Shown: positions 5,169 to 60,797, counted from the first letter of the stretch. The stretch: DNA of 64,000 nt from an uncultured Pseudomonadales bacterium (GCA_964430265.1 CAYSEI010000004.1:45872-109871), one strand, 5' to 3'. The notes: a model not told the origin generated them from the sequence alone. Program-made: numbers and translations.

Positions 5169-6455
5169 ATGAAAATTACTGTAGTGGGGACCGGTTATGT
5201 TGGCTTGGTTACAGCCGCTATATTTGCCAGTTTTAACAACCAGGTATATGGTCTAGATATAGACCAGGAAAAAATTGATACTTTAAAAAAAGGTAAAGTG
5301 TTTTTTTATGAACCCGGACTTGAGGAATTGGTCCAATCAGGAATAGATAAAGGAAATCTTCATTTTACGACTTCATACAAAAAAGCAGTGCCTGAATCAG
5401 AAGTCATTTTTATCTGTGTTGGCACTCCGCCAAAGAAAAATGGTGATTATGATTTAAAATATGTTTTATCTTCTGCAGAATCAATTGCCAAGAATTTAAA
5501 AAAATATTCAGTAGTGACAGTTAAAAGCACAGTTCCGCCAGGTACAAATGACAAAGTCAAAGAGGTTATGGATAAAAATACAAGTGTTTCTTATGACTTG
5601 GCAGCCTGTCCTGAGTTTTTAAGGGAGGGTAGTGCAGTAGAAGATTCTCTTAATCCTTCCAGGATTGTAATTGGTACGGATTCTGAAAAGGCTAAAGAAA
5701 AGCTTCTTAAGCTGCACAAACAAATTAAAGGTCCGCGATTAGTAACTGATGTTTCTAGTGCACAGTTAATCAAATATGCAAGTAATGCATTTTTAGCCAC
5801 AAAAATTTCATATATCAACTTCCTTGCCCGGCTTTGTGATAAAGTTGGTGCTGATATTAATGAAGTAAGCAAGGGATTGGGAATGGATCCCCGGATCAGC
5901 TCCTCATTTTTAAGGGCAGGCATTGGCTATGGAGGTTCTTGTTTTCCCAAAGACACTTGGGCACTAATCCGATTTGCTAAAAGAAAAGGTGAAGAGTTTA
6001 CTTTTTTAAAGCAGGTTGATAATGTCAACAAAACTCAGGTGGAATACTTTTTAAACAAAGCTGAAAAACTGGCTGATGATAGCTTACAAAGCAAAAAAGT
6101 AACTGTTTTGGGGTTATCTTTTAAACCGGAAACAGATGACATGCGTGAAGCTCAGTCAATTCCATTAATTAATGGTTTAAATAAAAGAGGGGCTAAAGTT
6201 ACTGCAACCGATCCGGTGGCAATTAAAAACGCCCAAAATTTGATTGAAGGGATAAAATATGAAAAAGATGTTTACAAAGCACTTGAAAACAGTGAGATGC
6301 TGATTTTAGTTACGGAGTGGGATAAATACAAAAACCTTGATTTTAAAAAAGTCAAAAAATTAATGAATAAACCAGTTGTTCTTGACGGCAGAAATATTTA
6401 CAATCCGGATAAAATGAAAAAATTGGGGTTTGTTTATAAAGGAGTCGGTCAATAA
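5169..6455 (+). CDS. ugd: UDP-glucose 6-dehydrogenase / nucleotide-sugar dehydrogenase
   Basis: N-terminal VVGTGYVGLV NAD-binding motif, catalytic-Cys motif GGSCFPKDT, 428 aa. Confidence 0.85.
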   Translation: MKITVVGTGYVGLVTAAIFASFNNQVYGLDIDQEKIDTLKKGKVFFYEPGLEELVQSGIDKGNLHFTTSYKKAVPESEVIFICVGTPPKKNGDYDLKYVLSSAESIAKNLKKYSVVTVKSTVPPGTNDKVKEVMDKNTSVSYDLAACPEFLREGSAVEDSLNPSRIVIGTDSEKAKEKLLKLHKQIKGPRLVTDVSSAQLIKYASNAFLATKISYINFLARLCDKVGADINEVSKGLGMDPRISSSFLRAGIGYGGSCFPKDTWALIRFAKRKGEEFTFLKQVDNVNKTQVEYFLNKAEKLADDSLQSKKVTVLGLSFKPETDDMREAQSIPLINGLNKRGAKVTATDPVAIKNAQNLIEGIKYEKDVYKALENSEMLILVTEWDKYKNLDFKKVKKLMNKPVVLDGRNIYNPDKMKKLGFVYKGVGQ

Positions 6456-7411
6456 TGAAAACTGCATTAATTACTGGAGTTACAGGCCAGGACGGATCAT
6501 ATCTAGCAGAATTGCTTTTAAAAAAAGAATACAAAGTGATTGGCATGATTAGGGAAAACAATGGAATCGATGATGAGAATATTAAGCATATAAAAAAAGA
6601 ATTGGTAATTGAAAGTGGTGATCTTTTAAATAAAGAATCACTTTTAAATATTTTTAAAAAACATAAAATTGATGAGGTTTACAATCTTGGTGGAATTACT
6701 TTTATACCTGCATCCTGGGAAAATCCCACAAAAACGTTTAATGTAAATACGCTTGGATATACAAGATTATTAGAATTAATTAAGGATAAATACCCCAATG
6801 TGAGAATATTTCAGGCAAATTCAGCAAAAATATTTGGCAAGCCTGACAAATCACCTCAGGATTTGGAAACAAAAATTAATCCGCAGGATCCTTATGGCAC
6901 CTCAAAAGCAGCAGCGCATTTGTTAACTAACAATATGCGAAAACAATTTGGCATTTATGCTGTTTCTGGTATTATGTATAATCATGAATCTGAAAGAAGA
7001 GGAGAGCAGTTTGTTACGCGTAAAATTACCAGGGGTGCGGTTAAAATAAAAAGGGGAATGCAAAAAGAGCTTAAGCTGGGTAATTTGGATGCACAAGTTG
7101 ACTGGGGTTATGCACCTGATTTTGTTAAAGCAATGTGGCTTTCACTACAGCAGGAAAAAGCAGACGACTATATTTTTGCTACAGGCAAGGTGCATAAAGT
7201 AAAAGATATTTGTAAAACAGCTTTTTCCTATCTTGATTTGGACTGGCAGGATTATGTTAAAGTGGATAAAAAGTTTTATAGGGAACAAAAAGGAAAATTG
7301 TTTACCGGTGATATCAGCAAAGCAAAAGAAAAACTTGGTTGGGAGCCGGAAACTTCTTTTGAAGAAATGATAGAAAAAATGGTTGAGTTTGATTTAAAAA
7401 ATATTAACTAG
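6455..7411 (+). CDS. GDP-mannose 4,6-dehydratase family protein (divergent paralog)
   Basis: [19 protein letters not shown] at the N-terminus, [17 protein letters not shown] (Gmd signature NHES.RRG..FVTRKI), 318 aa. Confidence 0.65.
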
Positions 7412-7427: not shown

Positions 7428-8390
7428 ATGAAAAAAGCATTAATCACTGGAATTACAGGACAAGACGGTTCATATTTGGCAGAACTTTTGTTAGAAAAAG
7501 GTTACGAAGTATATGGTTTAGTAAGAAGGACATCTCTGCCTAATAATGAAAGAATTGCACATATATTAGAAAAAGTTAATCTTGTATCAGGTGATTTAGC
7601 AGACCAGCATTCATTAACCAGGGCAGTAGAGGAAGTTCAGCCGGATGAAGTATATAATTTAGCTGCACAAAGCTTTGTTTCAACTTCCTTTAAGCAGCCT
7701 GTTTTAACCGGGGATATTACCGGATTGGGTGTAGCAAGAATGCTTGAAGCTTTAAGAATGGTTAAGCCGGATGCGAAATTTTATCAGGCTTCTTCTTCTG
7801 AAATGTTTGGCAAGGTAACAGAAACACCGCAGACGGAAAAAACTTTTTTTCATCCACGCAGTCCTTACGGAGTGGCTAAGGTTTATGGTCACTGGATAAC
7901 TATTAATTACCGTGAGTCTTATGATATGTTTGCAGTTTCGGGAATTCTTTTTAACCATGAATCACCTAGAAGAGGAACAGAATTTGTCACCCGGAAAATT
8001 AGCAAAGCTGCTGCAAGAATCAAGCTGGGCAAGCAGGAAAAGCTTTATCTTGGCAATATGGAAGCAAAAAGGGACTGGGGGTTTGCAAAAGATTATGTGG
8101 AAGCAATGTGGCATATGATGCAGCTGCCGGAACCGGAAAATTTTGTTATAGGAACCGGGGAAACACATTCGGTTAGGGATTTCTGCCAAAGAGCTTTTGC
8201 AGTAGTTGACCTTGACTATACAAAATATGTAGAAACTAAAAAAGAATTTTTACGTCCGGCTGAAGTTGACTATTTAAAAGCAGATTATTCCAAAGCTAAA
8301 GAAAAACTTGGCTGGGAGCCAAAAACCAGTTTTGATGAGTTGGTAAAAATTATGGTGGAAAAAGATTTGGAAAGGGAAAAAAATAAATGA
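7428..8390 (+). CDS. gmd: GDP-mannose 4,6-dehydratase
   Basis: [44 protein letters not shown] and [10 protein letters not shown]. Closer to canonical Gmd than the upstream paralog. Confidence 0.75.
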
Positions 8391-9319
8391 AAGTTTTAGT
8401 AACCGGAGGCGCAGGGTTTATTGGCAGTCATTTGTGTAAAGACCTTTTAAATCAAGGTCATTTTGTATACTGTGTTGACAACCTTTTAACCGGAAGAAGA
8501 GAAAATATCCTGGAACTTGAAGGGAATAAGAATTTTTGTTTTATTAGCGCAGACGTTTCCAAGGCAAAAATTGATCTGGAAGTTAAATATATTTTTCATC
8601 TTGCTTCGCCGGCAAGTCCAGTGGATTACCAAAACCTGCCTTTGGAAACAATGTTTGCTAACTCTAATGGGACAGAAAACATGCTGCGGCTTGGAGTAGA
8701 TAATAAAGCACGCTTTGTTTTAGCATCCACTTCCGAGGTTTATGGAGATCCTCTAGAGCACCCGCAAAAGGAAACATATAACGGAAATGTAAGTACAACC
8801 GGTCCTAGGGCCTGTTATGACGAAAGTAAAAGATATGCAGAAACATTAACCAAAATATTTGAAAAAAAATATGCTTTGGATGTCAGAATTGTCAGGATAT
8901 TTAATACATACGGTCCTAACATGAGAAAAGATGACGGAAGGGTAGTTTCCAATTTTATTAATCAAGCAATTGCAAACCAGCCGTTAACCGTATACGGCAA
9001 GGGAGAGCAAACGCGTTCATTTTGTTATGTTGATGATATGGTTAAAGGTTTAAACAAACTAATGTTTAATCCGGATATAAAGGGAGAGATTGTTAATATC
9101 GGCAACCCGCATGAAGTAACTATCTTGGAATTGGCGGAATTGATTCGAAAACTAGTCGGAAGCAGTTCAGAGATTATATTTAAACCATTACCACAAAATG
9201 ATCCGCAAAAAAGGTGTCCGGATATAACTAAGGCAAAAGAAATTTTAAAATGGGAACCGCAGATTGAATTAAAACAAGGATTACAAGAAACTATAAAATA
9301 TTTTAAAGGATTAAAATGA
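8387..9319 (+). CDS. UDP-glucuronate decarboxylase (UDP-xylose synthase)-like SDR
   Basis: [39 protein letters not shown] and [11 protein letters not shown]. The architecture and length (310 aa) match UXS/ArnA-decarboxylase-like enzymes. Sits with ugd, which would supply UDP-GlcA. Confidence 0.65.
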
Positions 9320-10467
9320 AGATTGTAGTTGTAATGCCGACTTACAATGAAGAAGACAACATTGGCAAAATGATTGATGTTCTGCATGAAGAGATTTTTC
9401 CGCAGCTGAAAAAGCATGATTTGGAATTATTGGTTGTTGATGATAATTCACCAGATAAAACACAAGAAATTGTTAAAAAGAAAACAAATAAATATGAAAA
9501 TATTCATCTTTTTACAGGAGAAAAAAAAGGTTTGGGAGTAGCTTATGTCAGGGGAATAAAATATGCAATGGAAAATCTGGATGCAGAATGGGTTGTGGAA
9601 ATGGATGCTGATTTTCAGCACAACCCAAATGACCTTGTGCCAATGATCTTAGCAGCAGAGGAAGGTTATGACTATATTATCGGTTCCCGCTACATAGAAG
9701 GCGGTTCAATACCCAAAGAATGGGCTTTAATACGCAAACTTCAATCAGTTTTAGGCAATTTGCTTGCCAGGATTGTTCTTTGGCTGCCACAAATTCATGA
9801 TGTTACCAGTGGGTTTAAAATGAGTAAGGTCAAAGAGTATTTGGATAAAATAGATATTGATGAAATTGTCAAGGAAGAATATTCCCGTAATTATGCTTAC
9901 AAAATATTTCTGCTTTTTAAAATGATTAAACAGGGAGCGAAAGTAAAAGAAGTTCCAATTAATTTTCAATCCCGCGAAGAAGGGGACTCAAAAATGCCCA
10001 AAAATAATATTAAGGATTCTTTACGCATGGTTCTGACTCTTAGATGGTTGGAGTCGCAGCGGTTTATAAAAGTCTGTGCAGTTGGAACTATTGGAGCGGC
10101 CATTCAGTTTACTATTTTTAATATCCTAAGAAGGACACTTAATCCGGAAATTGCCAATGTGATTGCAGTAGAGTTTGCAATTATTGGCAACTTTATTATT
10201 AATAATTCATGGACTTTTAAAGATAAAAAGCTCAAGATTGAAAAAGGATTGCAAAAGATCATTCTTAAATTTGCCCAATTCAACCTTTTTTCATTAGGTT
10301 CCTTATTAATTCAGTACATAGTAATGAAAATCGGCACTAACATTCTGGGTCGCGGCTTTATAATTGAAAATGGGTTAGTAGTAGTTGGAATTTTATTGGG
10401 TTTAATTTACAATTTTACAATCTACACCAAACTGATTTGGAAAACAACAAATAAAAAAGAAAAATGA
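9316..10467 (+). CDS. polyprenyl-phosphate sugar synthase (DPM1/GtrB-like GT2) fused to C-terminal GtrA-like membrane domain
   Basis: N-terminal VVMPTYNEEDNI...VVDDNSPDKT...EMDADFQHNP (GT2 DPM1-like DxD region). C-terminal KVCAVGTIGAAIQFTIFNILRR...GNFIINNSWTFKDKK is the GtrA-family signature. Confidence 0.75.
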   Translation: MKIVVVMPTYNEEDNIGKMIDVLHEEIFPQLKKHDLELLVVDDNSPDKTQEIVKKKTNKYENIHLFTGEKKGLGVAYVRGIKYAMENLDAEWVVEMDADFQHNPNDLVPMILAAEEGYDYIIGSRYIEGGSIPKEWALIRKLQSVLGNLLARIVLWLPQIHDVTSGFKMSKVKEYLDKIDIDEIVKEEYSRNYAYKIFLLFKMIKQGAKVKEVPINFQSREEGDSKMPKNNIKDSLRMVLTLRWLESQRFIKVCAVGTIGAAIQFTIFNILRRTLNPEIANVIAVEFAIIGNFIINNSWTFKDKKLKIEKGLQKIILKFAQFNLFSLGSLLIQYIVMKIGTNILGRGFIIENGLVVVGILLGLIYNFTIYTKLIWKTTNKKEK

Positions 10468-12653
10468 TTAAAGAACTTTCTGTTTTTTTCCCTGCCTACA
10501 ATGAAGAGAAAAATATTTCAAAAACTGTTAAAGATACTGTCAAAGTTCTTGAAGACAAGGGAATAAAATACGAGGCACTTGTAATTGATGACGGGTCCAA
10601 AGATAAAACAGCAGAAATTGTAAAAAAGCTTCACAAAGAGAATGAAAAAGTAAAACTTGTTTCCCACAATGAAAATAAAGGATACGGCGCTGCAATAAAA
10701 ACCGGTATGAAAAACTCCCAATATGAGTGGGTATGTTTTACAGACTCAGATGGGCAGTTTGATTTTAAGCAAATCAAAAGGTTTTTAAAACATACTGATG
10801 AAAATGATTTGATCATTGGATACAGGGAGAAGAGGTCCGATAGCTTAGTAAGAAGGTTTATTGCTAATGTTCTTTTAAGAATCTGGAATCTGATTTTGTA
10901 TGGTGTTTGGTTTAAGGATGTGGATTGCGGGTTTAAACTCTTTAAAAAGCAAGTGGTTGATAAGGTTTATCCTAAATTAGTTACAGAAAGTGCTATTACT
11001 GAAACTGAATTTATGGTCCGTAGCAAAAGAAATGGATTTAAAATAAACGAAGTGCCGGTAACCCACCATGCACGAACCGGAGGCGACCAGACGGGTGGAA
11101 ATTTTAAAGTTGTGAGTAAAGCTGTTTTACAAGGTATAAAACTATATTTATCTTTTTTAAAGGAATTCTTTTCCCAGTGGCAAAATATTTTGTTTTTTAT
11201 AATTCTTGTTTTAGGAGCTTTTTTAAGGTTTTTTAAATTAAGAGCTTATATGACTTTTTTAGGTGATCAAGGAAGGGATGCTTTGGTAGTTTGGAAGATG
11301 TTAAAAGAGGGGGACATTACTTTTTTGGGTCCGGTTGCATCTATGGGCGGTTTTTACTTAGGTCCAATCTATTATTATTTTATGGTCCCTTTTTTATTTC
11401 TTTGGAACTACAATCCGGTTGGTCCCGCTGTGATGGTGGTTTTGTTTGATTTAGCTACTATTGTTTTAATTTACAAATTTTGCAATGAGTTTATTAACAA
11501 AAAAGTTGCACTTTTATCAACATTTCTTTATGCAATTTCAAACCTTGTAATTGTCTATTCCCGTTTTTCCTGGAACCCCAATATCTTGCCTTTTTTCTCT
11601 TTTCTTGTGTTTTATTCTTATGCCAAGGCAATAATTAAAAAGCAAAAATTCTTTTATTTAATTGCAGGTTTATCTACCGGAGTAATTGTCCAGCTGCATT
11701 ATATGGCAGTTTTAATGTTTCCTTTTATGATTTTGGCTTACTTTCTTTTGGATAATAAAAAGGAGATAAAAGATATATTTCAGCTTATTGGCGGATTTTT
11801 AATTACTTTTTCACCTTTTTTACTTTTTGAGATCAGGCATGGATTTCCCAATTTCAATACTATTTTTAATTTTGTTTTAAAAGGTGAAGAAGTTGGCCTT
11901 CTTACAGGAGGTAAGCAGGTGGTTAACAATACTTTTATTAGTTTAGGCACCCAATTGTTTTCTGGGATTCTGACACCTGGATATAAATTACTGGGTAAAA
12001 TTTTACTTATATTTTCTTTAATTGGAATCTTTTTTGAATATCTGACGCCAAGAATTATGAAAAGAAAACAAACTATGTTATTGTTTTTTTTAATTAGCTT
12101 GATATTTATTTCTTCAATATACAATAATCCTATTCATGATCACTATTTGACATTTTTGTTCTTCTTGCCGCCATTGATTTTTAGTATTGCTTTTTTCAAG
12201 TTTGTTGATAATAGAAAGCTTCTTTTTATTCCCGGAGCAATATTAATCTTTTTACTAGTAAGAGCTAATTTTCAAGAGAATCTCTTACATGGAGAACCAA
12301 ATAGACAGCTAGCACAGCTTAACCGGGTAACTAATATAATAATTGATAAAGCTCAGAATAATAAATTCAACTTTGCCATGGCAACACCGGGCAATTCAGA
12401 TCATGCATACCGTTATTTTTTAACCAAAAAAGGATATGAACCTGTAAAAATTGAAAATCGAATTGAGGAAGAGTTAATGGTTGTATGTGAAGTCCAAGAT
12501 TGTAACCCTATAGATAAGAGTCTTTGGGAGATTAGGGAATTTGGAGATGCTAAAATAGAAGGCAAGTGGAGTGATGATGAAGTGATTTTTGTTTACCGTC
12601 TAGTACACACTAAAAAATCAGAAGATTTAATTGGACAACCTGCTAAAAAATAG
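10464..12653 (+). CDS. fusion protein: DPM1/GtrB-like GT2 domain plus GT-C-like polytopic membrane domain (D-x-G-R-D family)
   Basis: Residues 1 to about 230 are SVFFPAYNEEKNI...VIDDGSKDKT...FTDSDGQFD (GT2). The remainder is a roughly 500-aa multi-TM domain with LGDQGRDALVVWKML...LGPVASMGGFYLGPIYYYFM, homologous to ORFs 14572, 47452, 49065 and 59337. Confidence 0.65.
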   Translation: MIKELSVFFPAYNEEKNISKTVKDTVKVLEDKGIKYEALVIDDGSKDKTAEIVKKLHKENEKVKLVSHNENKGYGAAIKTGMKNSQYEWVCFTDSDGQFDFKQIKRFLKHTDENDLIIGYREKRSDSLVRRFIANVLLRIWNLILYGVWFKDVDCGFKLFKKQVVDKVYPKLVTESAITETEFMVRSKRNGFKINEVPVTHHARTGGDQTGGNFKVVSKAVLQGIKLYLSFLKEFFSQWQNILFFIILVLGAFLRFFKLRAYMTFLGDQGRDALVVWKMLKEGDITFLGPVASMGGFYLGPIYYYFMVPFLFLWNYNPVGPAVMVVLFDLATIVLIYKFCNEFINKKVALLSTFLYAISNLVIVYSRFSWNPNILPFFSFLVFYSYAKAIIKKQKFFYLIAGLSTGVIVQLHYMAVLMFPFMILAYFLLDNKKEIKDIFQLIGGFLITFSPFLLFEIRHGFPNFNTIFNFVLKGEEVGLLTGGKQVVNNTFISLGTQLFSGILTPGYKLLGKILLIFSLIGIFFEYLTPRIMKRKQTMLLFFLISLIFISSIYNNPIHDHYLTFLFFLPPLIFSIAFFKFVDNRKLLFIPGAILIFLLVRANFQENLLHGEPNRQLAQLNRVTNIIIDKAQNNKFNFAMATPGNSDHAYRYFLTKKGYEPVKIENRIEEELMVVCEVQDCNPIDKSLWEIREFGDAKIEGKWSDDEVIFVYRLVHTKKSEDLIGQPAKK

Positions 12654-12661
12654 GAGATAAA

Positions 12662-13426
12662 ATGAATAAAAAATATCTATCAGTAATTATCCCGGCGTTT
12701 AATGAAGAGGAAAATTTCAAACGCGGGGCTTTAAAACAAGTAAGCGAGTATTTAGAAAAACAAACTTATGAATATGAGGTTTTATTGGTTGATGACGGTT
12801 CAATTGACAAGACATATGACCTTCTTAAAGACTATATTAAAAACAAGAAAAATTGGAAATTAGTTAAAATTCCTCATCAAGGTAAGTATAAGGCAATAAA
12901 AAAAGGTGTTCAAAAAGCAAGTGGTGAGCTGGTACTCTTTACCGACTTTGACCAATCCACTCCCTTGTATGAATCGGAAAAATTAATTAAAGCAGTTAAA
13001 AACGGAAGTGACTTGGCAATCGGTTCCAGGGAAATTATTGGTGCCAAAAGGGAAGAGGAACCTTTTTACCGTCATTTAATGGGAAAAGGATTTAATTTTG
13101 TTGTCAGAATTATTACAGGACTTTCTTATCATGATACGCAATGCGGATTTAAACTGTTTAAAAAAGAACCGATAAAAAAGATCATAGAAAATGTATCTGT
13201 TGCAGAGAAAAGAAAGGTTGCGGATGCATATACAGGTGCTTTTGACGTGGAAATTCTTTATTTAGCCCAAAAGATGGGTTATAAATCAAAAGAAGTTCCT
13301 GTTGACTGGAAGCATTTTAAAACCCAGCGTGTAAATCCGATTAAAGATTCTTTAAGGATGTTTATAGATATTCTCAAAATTAGGGTTGCTGATTTATTGG
13401 GGGAATATAGAAAAAGTGATGAATAA
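12662..13426 (+). CDS. DPM1/GtrB-like GT2 polyprenyl-phosphate glycosyltransferase
   Basis: SVIIPAFNEEENF...LLVDDGSIDKT...FTDFDQSTP. 254 aa and soluble. Confidence 0.75.
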   Translation: MNKKYLSVIIPAFNEEENFKRGALKQVSEYLEKQTYEYEVLLVDDGSIDKTYDLLKDYIKNKKNWKLVKIPHQGKYKAIKKGVQKASGELVLFTDFDQSTPLYESEKLIKAVKNGSDLAIGSREIIGAKREEEPFYRHLMGKGFNFVVRIITGLSYHDTQCGFKLFKKEPIKKIIENVSVAEKRKVADAYTGAFDVEILYLAQKMGYKSKEVPVDWKHFKTQRVNPIKDSLRMFIDILKIRVADLLGEYRKSDE

Positions 13427-14571: not shown

Positions 14572-16134
14572 ATGAATAAAAATATCAAAAAATATATGAT
14601 ATTAACATCTATATTAATCTTGGCATTTTTGCTAAGGCTTAAACCTTTTGTAACCAAAGAAATTCCTTTTATATTTGATACCGGCAGGGACATGGTTTGG
14701 ACACGGGATATTGTTGTACTTAAGGACTTTACTTTAATCGGTCCCTGGACTTCATTAACCGGAGTTTTTTTTGGTCCGCTTTGGTATTATTTGTTGGCAT
14801 TATTTTTTATTCCTTTGGGTGGACATCCAATTACGGGAACGGCTCTTTCAACTTTTATTAGCTTGGCAACAGTTTTACTCTTATATATTGTCGGCAAGAA
14901 AACTAAAAATCATTATTTAGGTCTAATTTTGGCTTTTTTAGGGGCTGTTTATCCAATAATGATTGGAACTTCAGTGACCTCTTTAAATCCAAACCCGATT
15001 ATTTTTCTTTCACCTTTAATAATTTATCTTTTGTATATCCTTCCCAAAAGTAAAAATAATAAATTCTGGAAGTATCTGGCCGCTTTGTTTTTTACTGTCA
15101 GTCTAATTTTTCATTTTTCCACACCAACGGCTTTATACTTTACGCTTTTGTTAATTTTTTATTTAATTTATCTTTTTATTAAAACCAAACAATTTAAAAT
15201 AAAAAAATTTTTAATCAGTGGAATCTTTTTTATTATTCCTTTTGCACCTCAGATATTGTTTGAATTAAGAAATAACTTTTTACAAATCCGCTCATTTGCA
15301 AGCTTTTTGACTGGAAAATCTAATTCTTTACAAGGTTATCTGCCTATATTTGAAAGAACACTTAACCGCTGGGGAATTTTATGGGGCTTTTTTAAAAAAA
15401 TGCTTCCTTTAAACCAAAGTGTGATTGTGCAAATATTTTTTAGCTTATTAATTATTTATGCATATTATCTTGTTTACAAAAAAAAGGACAAATTAAAAAG
15501 CCTTTATGACCTTTGCTTTTTACTTTTAATCAGTTCATTTTTTGTTTTTAATTTTCTTTTTAAAGCAGCGCTCAGACCTTGGTATGTTTTTCATATTCCA
15601 ATGACCTTCATAATCTTACTGGGTACAAGCTTTTGGGTTGTGTTAAAAGAGCATAAGTTTTTAAAATATTTAATGCCAATATTAATTATTGGCTTTTTAT
15701 TAAATGTAAACTTTATTGCTTCACTTAAATTTAAACAGACAACACCGGATATCAGTGAGTACAGGAGCCAGAAAAAAGTAATTGAATATATTTACAATGA
15801 TGCAAATAAAACACCTTTTAATGTATATGTATTTACACCGGCTTTATATGATTTCCATTATCAGTACAGTTTTTGGTGGATCGGTCGCAAAAGAAACTTC
15901 TGGCCGGTTGAGTATGCGTATTTACCAGGTAAGGTAGAATATGTTCCAAATAAACAAAGGTATTATGACAGGCAAAAGCAGATTATGGGGGATAAAAAAG
16001 CAGAAATAACCTATTTAATAATTGAAACCAAAGATAATCCCAATTTCCCCGGATGGCACGGATATTTTGAAGAATTAGATCTGATTTCAGAAAAAGAGTT
16101 TGAAAGTGGTATAATTTTGGAGAAAAGGCATTAA
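14572..16134 (+). CDS. GT-C-like membrane protein, D-x-G-R-D family, with C-terminal soluble domain
   Basis: IFDTGRDMVWTRDIVVLKDFTLIGPWTSLTGVFFGPLWYY is shared with ORFs 10464(C-term), 47452, 49065 and 59337. Multi-TM N-terminal region and roughly 130-aa hydrophilic C-terminus. Confidence 0.5.
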   Translation: MNKNIKKYMILTSILILAFLLRLKPFVTKEIPFIFDTGRDMVWTRDIVVLKDFTLIGPWTSLTGVFFGPLWYYLLALFFIPLGGHPITGTALSTFISLATVLLLYIVGKKTKNHYLGLILAFLGAVYPIMIGTSVTSLNPNPIIFLSPLIIYLLYILPKSKNNKFWKYLAALFFTVSLIFHFSTPTALYFTLLLIFYLIYLFIKTKQFKIKKFLISGIFFIIPFAPQILFELRNNFLQIRSFASFLTGKSNSLQGYLPIFERTLNRWGILWGFFKKMLPLNQSVIVQIFFSLLIIYAYYLVYKKKDKLKSLYDLCFLLLISSFFVFNFLFKAALRPWYVFHIPMTFIILLGTSFWVVLKEHKFLKYLMPILIIGFLLNVNFIASLKFKQTTPDISEYRSQKKVIEYIYNDANKTPFNVYVFTPALYDFHYQYSFWWIGRKRNFWPVEYAYLPGKVEYVPNKQRYYDRQKQIMGDKKAEITYLIIETKDNPNFPGWHGYFEELDLISEKEFESGIILEKRH

Positions 16135-27163: not shown

Positions 27164-27992
27164 ACTATTTTCAATTGTTTTAAACTACAGCCGGCCTAAA
27201 GAGACTATCAATGCGGTAAAATCTCTACAAAAACAGGAAGGTGAATTTAAGCAACAGATTGTGGTTGTAGACAATTCAGAAAAGGGAAATATCAGTTTAA
27301 AAGAGTTTGAGGATCAGGAAGATATCCATTTGATCAAAATAGAAAAAAACCTTGGTTACAGCAAGGGAAATAATAGGGGAATAGAGTATGCCTTGGAAAA
27401 AGAAGCAGACTATGTTCTTCTTTTAAATGATGATGCATACTTAAGCAAGGATTGTATAGATAAAATGCTTAAAATAATGGAGAAAAGCAAAAATACAGGA
27501 ATTGCTTCTCCCAAAATATTTTTTGCTCCGGGATATGAGTATCACAAGAAGAAATATGAAAAAGACGATAAAGGCAAAGTTATTTGGTATGCCGGCGGAG
27601 TAATTGATTGGGATAATATACTGGCATCACACCAAGGTGTAGATAAGATTAATAAAAGCAACTTTGACAAGATAGAAAAAACTGATTTTGCTTCAGGATG
27701 CGTAATGCTGATAAAAGCGGAAGTTTTTAATAAAATCGGACTACTGGATCCCAAGTACTTTATGTACTGGGAGGACGTTGATTTTTGCCAGCGTGCAAAA
27801 CAAGCGGGCTACAAAGTTATATATATTGGTAAAGCAGAGGCTTGGCACAAGAACTTGGGAACAGTCAAAGGAGAAGAAAATGAGTTAAAAGAAAAATATA
27901 TGGCTTGGTCACGTCTATTGTTTGCTTTTAAATACGCACCTCTTAAAACAAAACTTCTTTTAATGAAAAAGTTTCTATCTACCTGGGTTTAA
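27147..27992 (+). CDS. GT2 family glycosyltransferase
   Basis: FSIVLNYSRPKETINAVKSL...VVVDNSEKG...LLNDDAY (GT-A fold DxD). 281 aa and soluble. Confidence 0.7.
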   Translation: MKKKIKLFSIVLNYSRPKETINAVKSLQKQEGEFKQQIVVVDNSEKGNISLKEFEDQEDIHLIKIEKNLGYSKGNNRGIEYALEKEADYVLLLNDDAYLSKDCIDKMLKIMEKSKNTGIASPKIFFAPGYEYHKKKYEKDDKGKVIWYAGGVIDWDNILASHQGVDKINKSNFDKIEKTDFASGCVMLIKAEVFNKIGLLDPKYFMYWEDVDFCQRAKQAGYKVIYIGKAEAWHKNLGTVKGEENELKEKYMAWSRLLFAFKYAPLKTKLLLMKKFLSTWV

Positions 27993-46418: not shown

Positions 46419-47462
46419 ATGAAAATTGCAGTATCTTTTAAAAACCACAAAAACGAAGCTAAAAGAGGCATAGATTTTTATACTGATAAAATAGTGGAAG
46501 GAATTAAATCAAGGGAAAAAATTGAACTGGTTAAAGAAGATGCAGCAGATTTAATTCACTTGACCAGTGCAGATTTTTTTAACAACCCCAGATTTGATCT
46601 GCTGAATAAAAAATATATTTACACAATTCACGACTTAATTCCGATTAAGTTCTCCGAGCATTTTCCTAAAGGAATAAAAGGAAGCACAAAATGGATGTTT
46701 AACCGGATTATTATGAAAAAAGCAAAATTTATGATAACCGATTCCGTAAGCTCAAAAAACGATATTGTAAAGATTATTAAATATCCTGAAGAAAAGATTA
46801 CAGTTATTCCATTAGCTCCAAGAGAAAATTTTAAATTAATGACAAAAGAAGAAAAGGAAAAGTTTTCCTCTGTCAAGGAAAAATATAATATTGCTGATGA
46901 TTTTGTATTATATGTGGGTGACGTAAACTGGAATAAAAACTTGCCTGGACTAGCAAAAGCATGTATTGAACTTGAATATCCGCTAGTTGTTGTTGGATCT
47001 AAAGCAGATAAAGAAAAATTCAATTCCAAACATCCAGAAAACAAGCCGCTTAAGGAATTCAAACAAATCCAAAAGAAAAACCCTGAATTAATCATTACAA
47101 CAGGATTTATACCTGAACGCTATTTAGTTTATATATACAATATTGCCAGACTATACTGCCAGCCGTCATATTATGAAGGATTTGGATTACCTGTTCTTGA
47201 AGCAATGGCATGCGGATGTCCGGTTTTATCTTCAAATCAGGGAAGTCTGCCTGAAGTAGGCAATAAAGCAGCAGTATATTTTAATCCCTATTATAAAGAA
47301 GAAATCAAAAGAAAACTTAAAAAATTTTGGAAATTAAAAGATAATCAGGTAAAATATCAAGAGTTAAGCAAAAATTGTCTGCAAAATGCAGACCAATATT
47401 CTTGGGAACAAACATTGGAAAAGACATTTAATGTTTATAGAAAGGCACTAAATGAAAATTGA
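46419..47462 (+). CDS. GT4 (Glycos_transf_1) glycosyltransferase
   Basis: YYEGFGLPVLEAMACGCPVLSSNQGSLPEV. 347 aa. Confidence 0.7.
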   Translation: MKIAVSFKNHKNEAKRGIDFYTDKIVEGIKSREKIELVKEDAADLIHLTSADFFNNPRFDLLNKKYIYTIHDLIPIKFSEHFPKGIKGSTKWMFNRIIMKKAKFMITDSVSSKNDIVKIIKYPEEKITVIPLAPRENFKLMTKEEKEKFSSVKEKYNIADDFVLYVGDVNWNKNLPGLAKACIELEYPLVVVGSKADKEKFNSKHPENKPLKEFKQIQKKNPELIITTGFIPERYLVYIYNIARLYCQPSYYEGFGLPVLEAMACGCPVLSSNQGSLPEVGNKAAVYFNPYYKEEIKRKLKKFWKLKDNQVKYQELSKNCLQNADQYSWEQTLEKTFNVYRKALNEN

Positions 47463-49068
47463 TAAACATAAAATCCTTTTGATTTTTATTATTTTAATAG
47501 CGGTTTTTTTCCGTTTTTATAATTTAAAAGATAATTTTAATTTTACTTATGATGCAGGCCGGGACCATATCCGCATAAACAACATATATGAAAATAAAGA
47601 TATAAAAATTGTTGGAACAGAAACTGATATTCCAGGTGTTTTTAGCGGTGCTTTTTATTATTATATGCTTATTCCTGGTCAAATAATTACTAAGGGAAAC
47701 CCGAATGCATCTATTTATCTTTTAGCATTTATAAATTTATTAGCTGTCCCCTTTATATATTTAATAACTAAAGAGTTATTTGATAATAAAACTACAGCCT
47801 TGATCGCTTCTTTTATTTCTGCAGTTTCATATTTTTTAGTCAACTATTCCCGTTTTCTTTCCAATGCTTCGCCCTTGCCTTTATCTATTGCTGTTTTCTT
47901 TTATGGTTTGCTTTTATGGAAGAAAGGCAAAAAAAACGGTTTTCCCTTAGCAATGCTGGGGCTTGGATTATCTACGCAATTTGACTATTTATATATTTAC
48001 TTATTTGTATACCTGCTGATAATCAAACTTTTATATAATCCTAAATTAAATAAAAAAGAACTTTTAAAGGGTTTTGTTGCAGGTTTAATAACTTTTAGCA
48101 CTTATATAATCGCAGAAATTAAATTTAAGTTTTTAGGAACAAGAGAACTGATAAGTTTTATTGCTGAGGGAGTAAATGAAGTTTCAGCTCAAGCAGCAAT
48201 TGATAAATATATTAATAAAATTGTAAGAATTACGGGGTATAACTTTTTCCATTTTAATTTTTTCCTTTCTTTATTAATTTTTGTTTTTATGATTTATTTT
48301 TCTTTTACAAGAACCAAGAAGAAAAAATATATAGAAAACCTTGAATTTGTTTTGTTGTGGTTTTTTTCATCTCTTTTAGTTCTTGGATTTAATACTGGAG
48401 GAGTAAATCTGCCGTTGATTATTAATAGCGGAATAATTTTTCCAGCAATTATTTTAGTTGCCTATTTTGGGCAAAAAGTTTATGCCAAAAATAAATTATT
48501 ATTTGCTTTAATGATTGTTATGATTTTCACAAGCAATCTTATTCTATATTTTGAAAGCAACTGGGTACCTTCAGATCTGAATAATCCCGGAAATAAAATG
48601 CTTTTGAAATATCAAAAACAAGCGCTTGATTATATGTATCAAGAAGCAGATGGAAAGGACTTTGCTTTTTGTGGGCTTACTCAGCCTCTTTTTATCAACT
48701 CGACATGGGCACACTTATTTGAATGGTATGGCAAAAGCAAATATGGATATCTTCCATACTGGTCTGGCCCAAAGCAAAATCCGCAATTTGGAGCATCTGA
48801 TATTCAAAAAGAAGAAGAGTTCAAGGAAACAAGATTTATTATCTATGAACCACCCTATGGGTTAAAAGAGGAAATGTATACTCATACGAGGATTGTTGCT
48901 GACAGAACTACAGAGGTTGTTGAAAAAAAGAACTTTGGTGCAATTGAAGTGGAAAAAAGACGAATCTTAAAAGGAGAGGAAAGAGAACAAGCGGAAAAAG
49001 AATTTCAATTAAAAAGCAAACAATACAAAGATGTTCTAGATAGTGATATTCGCTACAATTGCTTATGA
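47452..49068 (+). CDS. GT-C-like membrane protein, D-x-G-R-D family (tandem duplicate A)
   Basis: YDAGRDHIRINNIYENKDIKIVGTETDIPGVFSGAFYYYMLIPGQ. C-terminal soluble domain ends RRILKGEEREQAEKEF. Confidence 0.5.
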   Translation: MKIDKHKILLIFIILIAVFFRFYNLKDNFNFTYDAGRDHIRINNIYENKDIKIVGTETDIPGVFSGAFYYYMLIPGQIITKGNPNASIYLLAFINLLAVPFIYLITKELFDNKTTALIASFISAVSYFLVNYSRFLSNASPLPLSIAVFFYGLLLWKKGKKNGFPLAMLGLGLSTQFDYLYIYLFVYLLIIKLLYNPKLNKKELLKGFVAGLITFSTYIIAEIKFKFLGTRELISFIAEGVNEVSAQAAIDKYINKIVRITGYNFFHFNFFLSLLIFVFMIYFSFTRTKKKKYIENLEFVLLWFFSSLLVLGFNTGGVNLPLIINSGIIFPAIILVAYFGQKVYAKNKLLFALMIVMIFTSNLILYFESNWVPSDLNNPGNKMLLKYQKQALDYMYQEADGKDFAFCGLTQPLFINSTWAHLFEWYGKSKYGYLPYWSGPKQNPQFGASDIQKEEEFKETRFIIYEPPYGLKEEMYTHTRIVADRTTEVVEKKNFGAIEVEKRRILKGEEREQAEKEFQLKSKQYKDVLDSDIRYNCL

Positions 49069-50678
49069 ATAAAAAAACAAAAAATATATTACTAATAATT
49101 ATTTTAATAATTGCAGTATTTTTCCGTTTTTATAACCTCGAGGATAATTTTAATTTTTCTTATGACCAGGGAAGAGATCATTTAAGGGTAAATAACATGA
49201 TTGATAACTTAGAGGTAAAAATTGTTGGAACGGAGACAGATATTCCAGGAATTTTTAGCGGGTCTTTATATTACTACATGTTGATCCCCGGGCAAATAAT
49301 CAGTAATGGCAGTCCCAATGCTTCAATATATTTATTAGCCTTTTTGAACTTATTGAGCATTCCTTTAGTTTATTTAATAACCAAGGAGTTGTTTAAAAGT
49401 AAGATAACGGCTTTAATTGCTTGTTTTATTGCTACTTTTTCATATTTCCTGGTGAACTATTCACGTTACCTTTCAAATGCTTCTCTTTTACCTTTAACAA
49501 CTGCAATTTTCTTTTATGGTTTGCTTTTGTGGATAAAAGAAAAGAAAAACGGTTTTCCGCTTGCTATTTTAGGATGGGGATTGTCAACGCAAGCTGATTT
49601 TTTCTATATCTATCTTTTTGTATTTATACTTTTAATTAAGGTAATGTATAATCCCAGAATAAAAAAGAAAGAACTTTTAAAAGGATTTATTGCGGGTTTA
49701 ATTACTTTTAGCACATTTATTGTAGCAGAAATTAAATTTAAATTTTTGGGAATAAAAGAGCTAACAAAATATATTAGTCAGTCATCAACTCAAGTTAGCG
49801 TAGCTTCTGCAATAGATAAGTTTATAAATAAAATGGGGGTAGTGACAACTCATTCCTTTTTTAAGTTTAATCTTTTTTTGTCCTTATTAATTTTAGGATT
49901 TATGATTTATTTTTCTTTTACAAGAACAAAAGATAAGAAAAATATAAGAAGTCTTGAGTTTGTTATGTTTTGGCTTTTATCTTCAAGCTTACTTTTTGGT
50001 TTTGATACTGGTGCGGTTAACGTAGCAATAATTATTAATGGAGCACTGGCCTTTCCAATCATAATATTGTTAGCTTTTTTTGCTAAAAAAGTTTATGAAA
50101 AGAATAAATTCTTATTTATAACAATGATACTATTAGTTTTTATCAGCAATTTAAGCTTGTATTTTGAAAGCAATTGGGTGCCCAATGAATTGTCTTATCC
50201 GGGAAATCACTTTCTTTTAAAATATGAAAAGCAAGTTTTGGATTATATGTATAAAGAAGCTGATAATCAGGAGTTTTCTTTTTGTGCAGTTACTCAGCCT
50301 GCATTTATAAATTCTACCTGGGCATATTTGTTTGAATGGTATGGTGAAAATAAGTATGGGTATTTGCCGTATTGGTCAGGAACTGAACAAAATCCACAGT
50401 TTAGCGATACAGAAATTCAAAAAGAAGGAGAATTTAAAGAAACCAGGTTTATAATTTATGAACCACACATAAGTAAAGATAGTGAGTTATATGTTTCCAC
50501 AAAATTATTTGCAGATAGAACTACAGAGTTGATTGAAAGTAAACAAATTAATGAATTTATTATTGAAAAAAGAAGAATCTTGAAAGGTGAAGAAAGAGAA
50601 AAAGCGGAAAAAGTATTTAAGAAAAAAATTAAACAAAACCAGAATTTTATTTATGATCACAGATATAACTGCTTATGA
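49065..50678 (+). CDS. GT-C-like membrane protein, D-x-G-R-D family (tandem duplicate B)
   Basis: ATG 49065 (ATGA overlap; track TTG 49059). YDQGRDHLRVNNMIDNLEVKIVGTETDIPGIFSGSLYYYMLIPGQ. Collinear and highly similar to 47452 along its full length. Confidence 0.5.
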   Translation: MNKKTKNILLIIILIIAVFFRFYNLEDNFNFSYDQGRDHLRVNNMIDNLEVKIVGTETDIPGIFSGSLYYYMLIPGQIISNGSPNASIYLLAFLNLLSIPLVYLITKELFKSKITALIACFIATFSYFLVNYSRYLSNASLLPLTTAIFFYGLLLWIKEKKNGFPLAILGWGLSTQADFFYIYLFVFILLIKVMYNPRIKKKELLKGFIAGLITFSTFIVAEIKFKFLGIKELTKYISQSSTQVSVASAIDKFINKMGVVTTHSFFKFNLFLSLLILGFMIYFSFTRTKDKKNIRSLEFVMFWLLSSSLLFGFDTGAVNVAIIINGALAFPIIILLAFFAKKVYEKNKFLFITMILLVFISNLSLYFESNWVPNELSYPGNHFLLKYEKQVLDYMYKEADNQEFSFCAVTQPAFINSTWAYLFEWYGENKYGYLPYWSGTEQNPQFSDTEIQKEGEFKETRFIIYEPHISKDSELYVSTKLFADRTTELIESKQINEFIIEKRRILKGEEREKAEKVFKKKIKQNQNFIYDHRYNCL

Positions 50679-59336: not shown

Positions 59337-60797
59337 ATGAAAAAAAGATATATATTTCTGCTTGCACTAATTACTCTTCTTGGTTTTTGGTTGCGTTTTA
59401 ATTCAGTTTTTGAAACGGCAATCTATAATGGGGATGAAGGCAGAGATTATTTAAATGCATACCGAATTTGGAATGGTAAGTTAACTCTTTTGGGTCCAGC
59501 TATTTCTACTGTAAGATTTTTTCTGCCTCCTACATGGTATTATTTAGTTTCCATTCCTCTAAAAATCGGCGGTTGGAAAATAGAGGCCGCTCTACTTTTT
59601 ATTAACCTTCTTTATGCAGCCGGAACAGTTATCTACTATTTGCTGGGAAAAGAAGCCACTAATAAGGAAATTGGAGGAATAATATCTGCTGCTCTTTTTA
59701 CATTTTCTCCTTATATGACTAAAGCAGGCAGGTTTACAGGCAACCATATTGTAATTCCTGTTTTTACAGCTGCTTATTTATTGTTTTTAGTCCGTTATTG
59801 GGAAAATAAAAGGAAAAAGGATCTTTTATTAAGTTCTATTCTTTTGGGATTTACTTTTTCATTTCATTTTTCCATGTACTTATTTGTCATAATACAGATG
59901 GGGTTTCTTTTGTATTATTGGCTAAAACAAAAAATTATTAATTGGCAAGAATATATTTTAAATAACATTTCATTGTTTTTCTTCTGGCTGCCCATATTAA
60001 TTTTTGATCTCAGGCACGGATTTATTAATGTAAAGGGATTCTGGTATTACATGAATGAAGGCAGAACAGACCAGTTAAGAGAAACTGTGGGGCAGGGGGC
60101 TTGGTCTGTTAAGAACAACTTACAAGTAGTTGCAGATATTTTTCAGCAATATTTTAGAATAGGGGAAATATGGCCCTGGATTTATTTAATATTGGGAATT
60201 ATTGGACTTTTTCTGGTTATTAAAAAGAATGATAAAAAGGTTATAGTTTTAAGAATTCTAGGAATAATTTTTTTGTTTTTTATAAATGTTTTAATTTACA
60301 ACGGGTATATTGCCTACCACTTCTTTTTTGTCATTGTTCCATTTTATTTTCTGCTTATCAGTATTGGTTTATCAAAAATTATTAAAAGCTATATATTCTT
60401 AACTATTTTTCTTTTAATTATTACTCCTTTTTCTTTGATCTCTAAACAAGCTTATGCAAAAAAACCTAAAAGAGTTTTAAAAGTAAAAAAAGTAAGCAAT
60501 ATCATAATTAATGATTTAAAAAATTCACCAGAAAAGAAATACTCAATTTTTCTTAAAAAGAAAGAGGATTTCTGGGCGTTGGCAAAAGAATACAAATATC
60601 TAGTAGAAATAAAGACAAATAAGGAATTAGTTTCTGATCATCATTATGAGAATGCCGAGGTATTATATGTCGTTTCAGAAATAGAGGCTCCTAATCCTAT
60701 GGATTATGCAAATATTGAATTAGAGAATTTTAATCCCAAAGAAATTGTTTGGGAAAAAGAAGTTGATGACTACAAAATATACAAGCTGAAAAATTAA
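59337..60797 (+). CDS. GT-C-like membrane protein, D-x-G-R-D family
   Basis: YNGDEGRDYLNAYRIWNGKLTLLGPAISTVRFFLPPTWYYLVSIP. Multi-TM with a roughly 110-aa hydrophilic C-terminus. Confidence 0.5.
   Translation: MKKRYIFLLALITLLGFWLRFNSVFETAIYNGDEGRDYLNAYRIWNGKLTLLGPAISTVRFFLPPTWYYLVSIPLKIGGWKIEAALLFINLLYAAGTVIYYLLGKEATNKEIGGIISAALFTFSPYMTKAGRFTGNHIVIPVFTAAYLLFLVRYWENKRKKDLLLSSILLGFTFSFHFSMYLFVIIQMGFLLYYWLKQKIINWQEYILNNISLFFFWLPILIFDLRHGFINVKGFWYYMNEGRTDQLRETVGQGAWSVKNNLQVVADIFQQYFRIGEIWPWIYLILGIIGLFLVIKKNDKKVIVLRILGIIFLFFINVLIYNGYIAYHFFFVIVPFYFLLISIGLSKIIKSYIFLTIFLLIITPFSLISKQAYAKKPKRVLKVKKVSNIIINDLKNSPEKKYSIFLKKKEDFWALAKEYKYLVEIKTNKELVSDHHYENAEVLYVVSEIEAPNPMDYANIELENFNPKEIVWEKEVDDYKIYKLKN

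Follow-up and report, generated by a model that had tools for sequence, protein, structure and literature searches.

Within a 64,000-nucleotide stretch of DNA assigned to an uncultured Pseudomonadales bacterium (GCA_964430265.1 CAYSEI010000004.1:45872-109871; hereafter the window, with positions counted from its first letter), one gene joins two glycosyltransferase modules whose active sites are predicted to lie on opposite faces of the membrane. By fold and sequence, the N-terminal half of its product is supported as a polyprenyl-phosphate glycosyltransferase of family 2 (GT2) of the type represented by GtrB, ArnC, and dolichol-phosphate mannose synthase (DPMS). Structure prediction and profile comparison identify the C-terminal half as a membrane glycosyltransferase of the GT-C class with an ArnT-like fold of the PMT_2 clan, forming a distinct family rather than ArnT (GT83) proper. 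Judged from related loci and databases, the fusion is real and recurrent, but the two genes occur more often unfused. The two halves probably represent a covalently linked cognate pair, in which the GT2 would load polyprenyl phosphate and, after a flip across the bilayer, the GT-C would transfer the sugar to an acceptor in the envelope.

Results

A single reading frame encodes a GT2 and a GT-C

The fused gene is a single uninterrupted frame of 729 codons, and its ATG shares the sequence ATGA with the stop of the upstream gene. A preliminary description of this DNA had proposed one continuous polypeptide with GT2 signatures in roughly the first 230 residues. The open frame and the recurrence of the architecture in more than 100 homolog clusters bear out the continuity, and all three quoted motifs are in place, AYNEEKNI at residue 11, DDGSKDKT at residue 42, and TDSDGQ at residue 93, followed by DQGRD at residue 268. 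The domain scan called for in that description returns both expected Pfam families: Glycos_transf_2 at residues 6-135 (E 7.6e-29) and PMT_2 (PF13231) at residues 301-454 (E 1e-8; 36.0 bits with a gathering cut-off of 26.1). The PMT_2 model, which stands for an ArnT/PMT/Rgt-like clan, leaves the DxGRD loop uncovered. Neither PF02366 nor MIR domains, by which a PMT (GT39) would be recognized, were found by Pfam in the window protein, and some homologs carry weak precomputed PF02366 hits only.

The AlphaFold2 (AF2) model of the fused protein reaches a predicted local distance difference test score (pLDDT) of 90.7 and a predicted template modelling score (pTM) of 0.88, the latter indicating a confidently predicted, fixed arrangement between the two modules. 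In this model, the second juxtamembrane helix (JM2, residues 214-236) runs via 2-3 residues almost straight into the first transmembrane (TM) helix (TM1, residues 239-256). The parts of the gene are as follows (all on the + strand; aa, amino acids).

10464..12653, +, complete fused gene, 729 codons and stop: GT2 domain of polyprenyl-phosphate glycosyltransferase type, then GT-C membrane glycosyltransferase
10464..11099, +, GT-A (GT2) catalytic domain, predicted cytoplasmic, aa 1-212, with juxtamembrane helix JM1 at aa 128-146, assigned by profile, Foldseek, and NCBIfam
10743..10757, +, D94-S-D96-G-Q98, the DxD metal/nucleotide-sugar motif plus Gln
11100..11177, +, fusion joint: JM2 and the 2-3 residue linker in the AF2 model; split orthologs stop exactly here
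11178..12287, +, membrane-embedded GT-C domain, aa 239-608, with about 11-13 TM helices, predicted N-in/C-out (AF2, Foldseek, hhalign)
11265..11279, +, D268-Q-G-R271-D272 in the predicted first extracytoplasmic loop, with putative catalytic Asp and phosphate-binding Arg (invariance and ArnT alignment)
11568..11582, +, S369-W-N-P-N373, in the predicted second extracytoplasmic loop (placed from the AF2 helices)
12288..12650, +, C-terminal soluble alpha/beta domain, aa 609-729, predicted extracytoplasmic (AF2 secondary structure)

The N-terminal half matches polyprenyl-phosphate GT2 enzymes

An alignment of 51 fused homologs is the source of the family profile and of all invariance counts given here. 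Against chains of the PDB, this profile finds ArnC (1.2e-28), GtrB (3e-24), and Pyrococcus furiosus DPMS (1e-21), with matches that extend through the juxtamembrane region to residue ~217. The same three enzymes are the top Foldseek matches of the AF2 model. With the profile of the whole fused family, only GT2 structures are found among PDB chains, and ArnT is not reached.

D94, D96, and Q98 are invariant, D94 being aligned to D100 of ArnC. Moreover, G119-Y-R121-x-x-R124-x-D126 and R130 are invariant or nearly so and align to VRQNRQDSLFR of ArnC. In GtrB, D94, D96, Q98, and an Arg cluster following strand beta5 (R122/R125) have roles in binding metal, nucleotide sugar, and polyprenyl phosphate, and in the structures of GtrB and ArnC two amphipathic juxtamembrane helices have been given a function as lipid entry (PMC12698845). 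The window protein matches this functional set with D94-x-D96-x-Q98, R121/R124/R130, and D152, together with the AF2 helices 128-146 and 214-236. The N-domain possesses neither a TM hairpin of its own, as in GtrB and ArnC, nor a GtrA-like domain of four TM helices, as in DPMS; in sequence and model it resembles the TM-less subgroup of DPM1, Ppm1-D2, GacI, and WpsA. Its best NCBIfam matches, without exception polyprenyl-phosphate sugar synthases (PgfS, ArnC, AglJ, Dol-P-hexose transferase, and PpgS), all score far below the equivalog cut-offs, and therefore no sugar specificity can be assigned.

The C-terminal half adopts an ArnT-like fold with a distinct loop motif

The GT-C half is detectable solely by fold or profile-profile comparison and not by a sequence profile against PDB chains. 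Foldseek aligns it to ArnT (5f15) with an E-value of 4.7e-8 over 569 columns and a target-normalised TM-score of 0.60; further matches are archaeal AglB (7e9s), human STT3 (8pn9), and ALG12 (9s6t). For hhalign, the query profile comprised fused, split, stand-alone, and paralogous members of the C-domain family, and the target was Escherichia coli ArnT aligned with the C-terminal domains of three Planctomycetota fusion proteins (see below). This comparison yields a probability of 94.7% and an E-value of 5.8e-8 over 313 columns.

The motifs DExRYA and YFEKP of periplasmic loop 1 are functionally important in ArnT. hhalign sets G-D268-Q-G-R271-D272-A on P-D-E-T-R-Y-A, and by this alignment the DxGRD loop is the counterpart of the DExRYA motif in loop 1 of ArnT, of which the fused protein retains only part (D-Q-G-R-D-A). 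D268, G270, R271, and D272 are invariant, D268 and D272 lying 12-16 residues past TM1. SWNPN (369-373) is likewise invariant. Short loops rich in Lys and Arg at 344-345, 392-395, 430-434, 527-535, and 582-585 fit the positive-inside rule on sequence inspection. We thus infer a topology with the N-terminus inside, 11-13 TM helices, and the C-terminus outside, which would place all of the invariant polar residues D268, R271, D272, SWNPN 369-373, Q410, H412, H459, and N463 on the outer face. The C-terminal domain is likewise predicted to lie outside the cell because the number of TM helices would be odd and because the C-terminal domain of ArnT is periplasmic. It contains a near-invariant pair of cysteines (C675/C680) and invariant N636, E676, and E689. 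Regarding the topology anticipated in the preliminary description, the GT2 and GT-C folds are recovered by Foldseek, and the cytoplasmic and extracytoplasmic placement would follow from predicted helices and loops.

That description had also linked the roughly 500-residue polytopic domain to four membrane proteins of the same locus by a common D-x-G-R-D. In the window, the motif D-x-G-R-D occurs some 35 residues from the N-terminus in exactly four stand-alone membrane proteins, and a phmmer search with residues 231-729 against the open reading frames (ORFs) of the window retrieves these four with E-values of 6e-20 to 5e-28. The proposed kinship therefore withstands alignment.

14572..16134, +, stand-alone DxGRD GT-C paralog, DTGRD at aa 36 (phmmer E 6e-20)
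47452..49068, +, stand-alone DxGRD GT-C paralog, DAGRD at aa 34 (phmmer E 1.3e-24)
49059..50678, +, stand-alone DxGRD GT-C paralog, DQGRD at aa 36 (phmmer E 4.9e-28)
59337..60797, +, stand-alone DxGRD GT-C paralog, DEGRD at aa 33 (phmmer E 2.6e-22)

A further variant of the family is P0132 (706 aa; P denotes a database protein), with a DxGRD-family match at residues 16-524, a C-terminal extension of ~180 residues, and no N-terminal GT2.

Both halves are conserved in fused homologs

Homolog clusters were drawn from NCBI, JGI, ENA, and Logan assemblies. The top 120 share 35-66% identity with the window protein, have lengths of ~710-750 aa (one of 689 aa), and combine GT2 and PMT_2 in the same way; the sole exception is P0041, a protein of 503 aa with PMT_2 only. 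Among the 51 aligned fused proteins, the GT2 domain shows a mean pairwise identity of 52%, compared with 39% for the membrane domain and 41% for the C-terminal domain. Invariance of at least 96% is seen in eighty columns, which the two halves share about evenly; they include D43, D94, D96, Q98, R121, R124, R130, and D152 in the first and D268, G270, R271, D272, and S369-N373 in the second. Both halves of the fused form are thus under selection and, since their catalytic-type residues are invariant, both are probably active; neither gives the impression of a relic in decay. Within the reach of sequence comparison, an artefact caused by a missed stop or a frameshift can be excluded.

The architecture is already present in databases under generic names, e.g., UniRef A0A2H0W9T3, "Glycosyltransferase 2-like domain-containing protein". 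A full-text literature search found no paper describing or characterizing a GT2-GT-C fusion; its coverage of subscription journals is thin, so that this is weak evidence. The search agrees with the earlier statement that characterized three-component systems keep GT2 and GT-C separate. As a database entry, however, the arrangement is no rarity: there are more than 100 fused clusters and a second, independent fusion in Planctomycetota, one of them a cultured strain.

Fused, split, and solitary states interleave among relatives

In related loci (numbered with L), ORFs were called and scored against the window proteins, which reveals three states. State A, the fused form, occurs in the window, in L001 (Daviesbacteria), in L043 (Beckwithbacteria), in L002 (partial), and in L003. 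In L003 the C-domain of the fused gene (L003:5974-8150) is broken into two abutting ORFs of 462 and 262 aa, representing a pseudogene or an assembly frameshift. In state B, the split form, a GT2 of 233-267 aa is directly followed by a GT-C of ~430-530 aa with overlapping stop and start (L012-L016, L020, L081/L082, and less clearly L022). These split GT2s score 195-238 bits against the N-domain, versus 30-115 bits for other GT2 paralogs. In state C, found at 11 loci, a GT-C ortholog directly follows a gene for a GT2 fused to a GtrA-like domain (GT2-GtrA), and no GT2 of the N-domain type adjoins it. The search for orthologous fusions and split genes suggested by the preliminary description thus finds both in related metagenome-assembled genomes (MAGs) of Microgenomates/Patescibacteria.

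The site of fusion is precisely defined. Split GT2s end at the JM2 helix with ...SFVDLFRLWRKLK and a stop (e.g., ...LWRKLK before the stop) and have no TM helix. In fused proteins the JM2 helix carries on into TM1 (...SFLDLLRLWWKLKDQKILFIALVG), and a joint consensus of ...LKLWWxL...ILxLAAFLR is kept among the members. L081, in which the gene order is as in the window, encodes P0041, the nearest unfused relative of the window protein. In this pair, the GT2 matches residues 1-228 with 57% identity and the GT-C matches residues 241-720 with 48%. Their ORFs overlap by 25 nucleotides (nt) in different frames, so that an indel of one base would join them. L081 additionally encodes, between the GT2-GtrA gene and this pair, a 210-aa VTT/DedA-domain protein (L081:3658-4290, +); no homolog of it was found among window ORFs of at least 150 aa. 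DedA-family proteins are implicated in polyprenyl-phosphate recycling.

In a neighbour-joining tree of C-domains, fused, split, and solitary states are interleaved in one orthogroup that lies apart from the four paralogs of the window. The tree is distance-based, carries no support values, and was used solely for this interleaving, which suggests repeated fusion or fission. An exhaustive phmmer search with the C-domain against 1.84 billion representative sequences retrieves 6261 relatives at E<=1e-3, of which 3197 reach E<=1e-10 and 503 reach E<=1e-30. Among the best 150 representatives, 8 (perhaps 9) have an N-terminal extension of ~240 residues, the others being stand-alone proteins of ~480-530 aa.

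Two other readings were considered and rejected. Based on tblastn, which gave full-length matches (1-720) at ~20 loci, the fusion appeared near-universal in Microgenomates, but ORF analysis resolved these mostly into GT2-GtrA plus a separate GT-C, or into a split pair. Likewise, an ancestral fusion with split forms created by sequencing frameshifts disagrees with GT-C proteins that have their own starts with Lys/Arg-rich N-termini and with clean GT2 stops, in at least 8 independent assemblies; the dominance of stand-alone proteins in the representative set also speaks against it.

Planctomycetota fused a similar GT2 to a different GT-C

Three Planctomycetota proteins of 831-881 aa, with both PMT and PMT_2 Pfam matches, show the same order of GT2 followed by GT-C.

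L037:5896-8439, GT2+PMT/PMT_2 fusion, Gemmataceae MAG
L044:5794-8436, GT2+PMT/PMT_2 fusion, cultured Neorhodopirellula pilleata Pla100
L048:5974-8466, GT2+PMT/PMT_2 fusion, Rubripirellula MAG

The GT2 of the N. pilleata protein is 34% identical to the window N-domain. Its GT-C half contains a canonical ArnT motif, DRDETRYAEIPREM (DETRYA-type), and has no BLAST-detectable similarity to the DxGRD domain. As an unrelated, ArnT-type GT-C is joined to a similar GT2, the Planctomycetota fusion arose independently. That one kind of GT2 has been linked with two separate GT-C families speaks for a functional cause. These uncharacterized proteins differ from the window protein in their greater length and in a GT-C that belongs to the canonical ArnT-like group rather than to the DxGRD family.

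A GT2 of the polyprenyl-phosphate type also occurs in another composite protein, a 715-aa ORF of an Anaerolineales MAG (L062:3097-5241, +; CAZBJW010000050.1). There it is combined with a 4Fe-4S ferredoxin motif and FrhB/FdhB N- and C-domains, which resemble the beta subunit of coenzyme F420 hydrogenase.

Discussion

A proposed linkage of donor synthase and donor user

We propose that module 1 (aa 1-236), on the cytoplasmic side, would take a single sugar residue from a nucleotide sugar and load it onto polyprenyl phosphate in the inner leaflet, and that module 2 (aa 239-729) would pass the sugar from the flipped polyprenyl-phosphate-sugar to an envelope acceptor outside. As the two active sites would lie on opposite membrane faces, a flip is still required; it would be performed by another component, for which the upstream GtrA-like domain and a Wzx-like protein (23316-24764) are candidates. 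The fusion probably originated in a pair of neighboring genes with overlapping ends, for which an indel of 1 nt within the overlap may suffice. It would anchor the TM-less GT2 to the membrane and perhaps activate it, and would fix a 1:1 stoichiometry and the proximity of donor maker and donor user. Because the GT2 lacks a TM helix, anchoring or activation by the partner is the simplest selective reason. The toggling of adjacent orthologs between fused and split states is gene-fusion (Rosetta-stone) evidence for a functional pair. The domain identities, the homology, the conservation, and the fused/split polymorphism are observed here; both activities, the use of the module 1 product by module 2, the topology, and the reason for fusion are inferred. 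The preliminary description had suggested that the donor is made and consumed by the same protein if both domains are active. The invariance of catalytic-type residues in both halves is in favor of this idea; the description had, however, left out the obligatory transbilayer flip, and the pairing of the two activities is presumed.

Several observations weigh against this proposal. At state-C loci, the GT-C has no N-domain-type GT2 next to it, and therefore does not strictly depend on one, at least as a neighbor. The YFEKP motif of ArnT aligns to FYLGP in the C-domain family, so that both Glu and Lys are gone and the phosphate-binding chemistry may differ. With ~10 GT2 and ~19 GT-C-like genes in the window, pairings are not readable from adjacency alone. 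Finally, a kinetic benefit of fusing active sites on opposite faces is not obvious.

Competing explanations were weighed. The main one, although unlikely, is that the GT-C half serves the GT2 only as membrane anchor or activator, while the GT-C, if active, uses a donor made by a different GT2; the fusion would then not mark a pair of donor maker and donor user. Split GT2 orthologs without a TM helix would need such a partner, and examples exist of membrane partners whose own activity is unrelated (Ppm2/Lnt-Ppm1 and GacJ-GacI, to which DPM3-DPM1 can be likened). Moreover, the state-C genomes keep the GT-C directly after GT2-GtrA, whose product may serve it, and the locus offers many alternative GT2s. 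A generic need for an anchor, however, explains less easily than functional coupling why Planctomycetota fused the same GT2 type to a different GT-C family, and the split pair keeps its adjacency and translational coupling. At the other extreme, the protein, or the tight GT2/GT-C complex that it would represent, could be self-contained: polyprenyl-phosphate-sugar would be guided from the juxtamembrane helices of the GT2 along the TM surface of the GT-C to the outer active site, with no separate flippase. Released polyprenyl phosphate would return by the same route, such that one polypeptide couples synthesis, translocation, transfer, and carrier recycling. We consider both the outward route and the return improbable. 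The very short linker, the confident inter-domain geometry, and recurrent independent fusion would suit this model, as would a weak NCBIfam match (residues 242-434; 29 bits, cut-off 126) with "flippase activity-associated protein Agl23", a family of archaea. Yet candidate flippases are kept nearby, namely the GtrA-like domain upstream and the Wzx-like protein, with a DedA/VTT gene in L081, and most family members are unfused. We know of no GT-C shown to flip its own donor.

It is even less probable that one half is a catalytically dead relic, with the GT2 as a nucleotide-sugar sensor or regulator or the GT-C as a scaffold. This is a general possibility for fused enzymes, to which the missing Glu/Lys pair of YFEKP lends some weight, but the metal, nucleotide-sugar, and polyprenyl-phosphate residues of ArnC/GtrB are all invariant in the N-domain. 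Further, the Asp/Arg motif of the first extracytoplasmic loop and several polar motifs assigned to the outer face are invariant across fused, split, and stand-alone C-domains. Least probable of all, to a degree we regard as nearly negligible, is an assembly or sequencing artefact in which a lost stop or a frameshift joined two genes in the contig. Fused and split arrangements differ by as little as a 1-nt change of frame in the 25-nt overlap, and a single-base error could mimic fusion; such an error would have to recur in more than 100 independent clusters of ~710-750 aa with 35-66% identity and an identical joint, including the Daviesbacteria (L001) and Beckwithbacteria (L043) MAGs, and the joint sequence is conserved among fused members.

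Relation to characterized systems

With the lipid A aminoarabinose pathway of Enterobacteria (ArnC/ArnT, with ArnE/F), the proposed pair shares folds and pathway order, in that a GT2 loads the carrier and a GT-C of ArnT fold spends the loaded carrier. A UDP-glucose dehydrogenase gene and an SDR (short-chain dehydrogenase/reductase) gene of the ArnA-C/UXS-like kind just upstream of the window gene add to the likeness. In contrast, ArnC and ArnT are separate proteins with the ArnA and ArnD genes between them, ArnC has two TM helices of its own whereas the window N-domain has none, FYLGP replaces YFEKP, no NCBIfam equivalog cut-off is reached, and lipid A cannot be assumed to be the acceptor of the window protein.

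Three-component systems (GtrA/GtrB/GtrC; CsbB-GtlA/GtcA/YfhO-GtlB; the Csd and Scc pairs) combine a cytoplasmic GT2 that forms a C55 polyprenyl-phosphate sugar, a small flippase candidate of the GtrA family, and a polytopic GT-C outside. All three types of part are present in the window; there, however, GT2 and GT-C form a single chain and another GT2 carries the GtrA-like domain, whereas the characterized systems consulted keep the parts separate.

The closest analogy named in the preliminary description, Ppm1 (Rv2051c), holds with respect to gene organization: it is fused in Mycobacterium tuberculosis, and Ppm2 and Ppm1 are encoded by adjacent genes in M. smegmatis and Corynebacterium glutamicum (PMC3460810). 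The Ppm2 partner has been proposed to anchor and activate the TM-less polyprenyl-phosphate mannose synthase (PMC3460810). As with the window pair, a TM-less synthase is thus joined to a polytopic membrane protein in some genomes and separate from it in relatives. In contrast to the window protein, the partner is an Lnt N-acyltransferase, is N-terminal, and does not consume the lipid-linked sugar. In GacI/GacJ and WpsA/WpsB, a TM-less GT2 depends on a membrane partner, for which a role in anchoring or activation is likewise proposed; some species have natural GacJ-GacI fusions, and a WpsB-WpsA fusion made by engineering proved active (PMC10821137). Dependence of a TM-less polyprenyl-phosphate GT2 on a membrane partner and the occurrence of natural fusions are thus common ground, but in these cases the partner is a small, non-catalytic protein with three TM helices at the N-terminus.

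Locus context and host

The fused gene lies inside a long same-strand block that opens with nucleotide-sugar genes: RmlB, RmlD, UDP-glucose 6-dehydrogenase, two GDP-mannose-4,6-dehydratase-like genes, and a UXS/ArnA-C-like SDR. Next come GT2-GtrA, the fused gene, a third GT2, and an MptA/B-like GT-C, and then further membrane proteins of the PMT_2, YfhO, and PTPS_related kinds as well as the Wzx-like protein. The order of epimerases, GT2-GtrA, [GT2]-GT-C, GT2, MptA/B-like, and PMT_2 is conserved in related MAGs. In particular, the GT2-GtrA gene keeps its upstream position in almost all related loci, and the third GT2 is conserved directly downstream. The neighbors and other genes discussed are the following.

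9316..10467, +, upstream neighbor, 383 aa: GT2 fused to a GtrA/DPMS-type domain of 4 TM helices (Pfam Glycos_transf_2 and GtrA_DPMS_TM), 4-nt overlap with the fused gene
12662..13426, +, downstream neighbor, 254 aa: third, TM-less GT2 of polyprenyl-phosphate type (Pfam, NCBIfam)
23316-24764, Wzx-like protein (Polysacc_synt_3)
27979-29604, -, membrane protein without Pfam match, 541 aa, ~7 TM helices
38691-39293, +, membrane protein without Pfam match, 200 aa, ~6 TM helices
52521..53234, +, closest in-window paralog of the N-terminal GT2, 237 aa, TM-less (phmmer E 6e-32; Pfam, NCBIfam)
60842-62089, +, membrane protein without Pfam match, 415 aa, ~10 TM helices

Reading the identity of the sugar from the upstream nucleotide-sugar genes was attempted and abandoned, as dTDP-Rha, UDP-GlcA and UXS-like, and GDP-6-deoxyhexose pathways are too many to choose from. 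The two GDP-mannose 4,6-dehydratase-like genes stand in tandem (6455-7411 and 7428-8390, +). With an NCBIfam equivalog cut-off of 415, the second passes at 444.6 and the first scores 325.9; the first may have a diverged specificity.

In total, the 64 kb hold ~19 GT-C-like, 10 GT2, and 2 GT4 genes, nearly all on one strand. The GT-C-like genes are of the PMT_2, YfhO, PTPS_related, MptA/B-like, and PIG-V-like kinds. Together with the Wzx-like flippase, these genes for lipid-carrier glycosylation (9316-62089) reach an exceptional density. The three membrane proteins listed without Pfam match (none at E<=0.01 or 0.001) may be unrecognized GT-C families or flippases. So many extracytoplasmic transferases stand out in a genome-reduced bacterium of the candidate phyla radiation (CPR).

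Based on named homologs, the host appears to be a Microgenomates-type (CPR/Patescibacteria) bacterium. Several related MAGs labelled "uncultured Gammaproteobacteria bacterium" (L003, L008, L009, L011, L015, L016, L022, L053, L060) have Microgenomates-type gene order and proteins. The same order is seen in L014, labelled "uncultured Pseudomonadales", as in MAGs of Daviesbacteria, Gottesmanbacteria, and Levybacteria. The taxonomic labels of those co-assembly MAGs look wrong.

Implications

Neither the modules themselves nor the joining of a TM-less polyprenyl-phosphate GT2 with a membrane partner is new, and no new biochemical principle is involved. Matching cytoplasmic GT2s with the extracytoplasmic GT-Cs that they supply is a persistent difficulty in annotation, acute in loci like the window. 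For one such pairing, a fusion that toggles with a split, translationally coupled pair provides Rosetta-stone evidence. Moreover, the fusion defines a large, uncharacterized family of ArnT-like "DxGRD" GT-C proteins. A donor synthase and donor user in a single chain would be an attractive target for cryo-electron microscopy, which could reveal their arrangement and any path of hand-off or flipping. A self-contained hand-off, if true, would be fitting for CPR bacteria, whose genomes are reduced and whose pool of carrier lipid is presumably scarce. For CPR biology, the fused protein adds to the unusually elaborate envelope glycosylation apparatus of Microgenomates.

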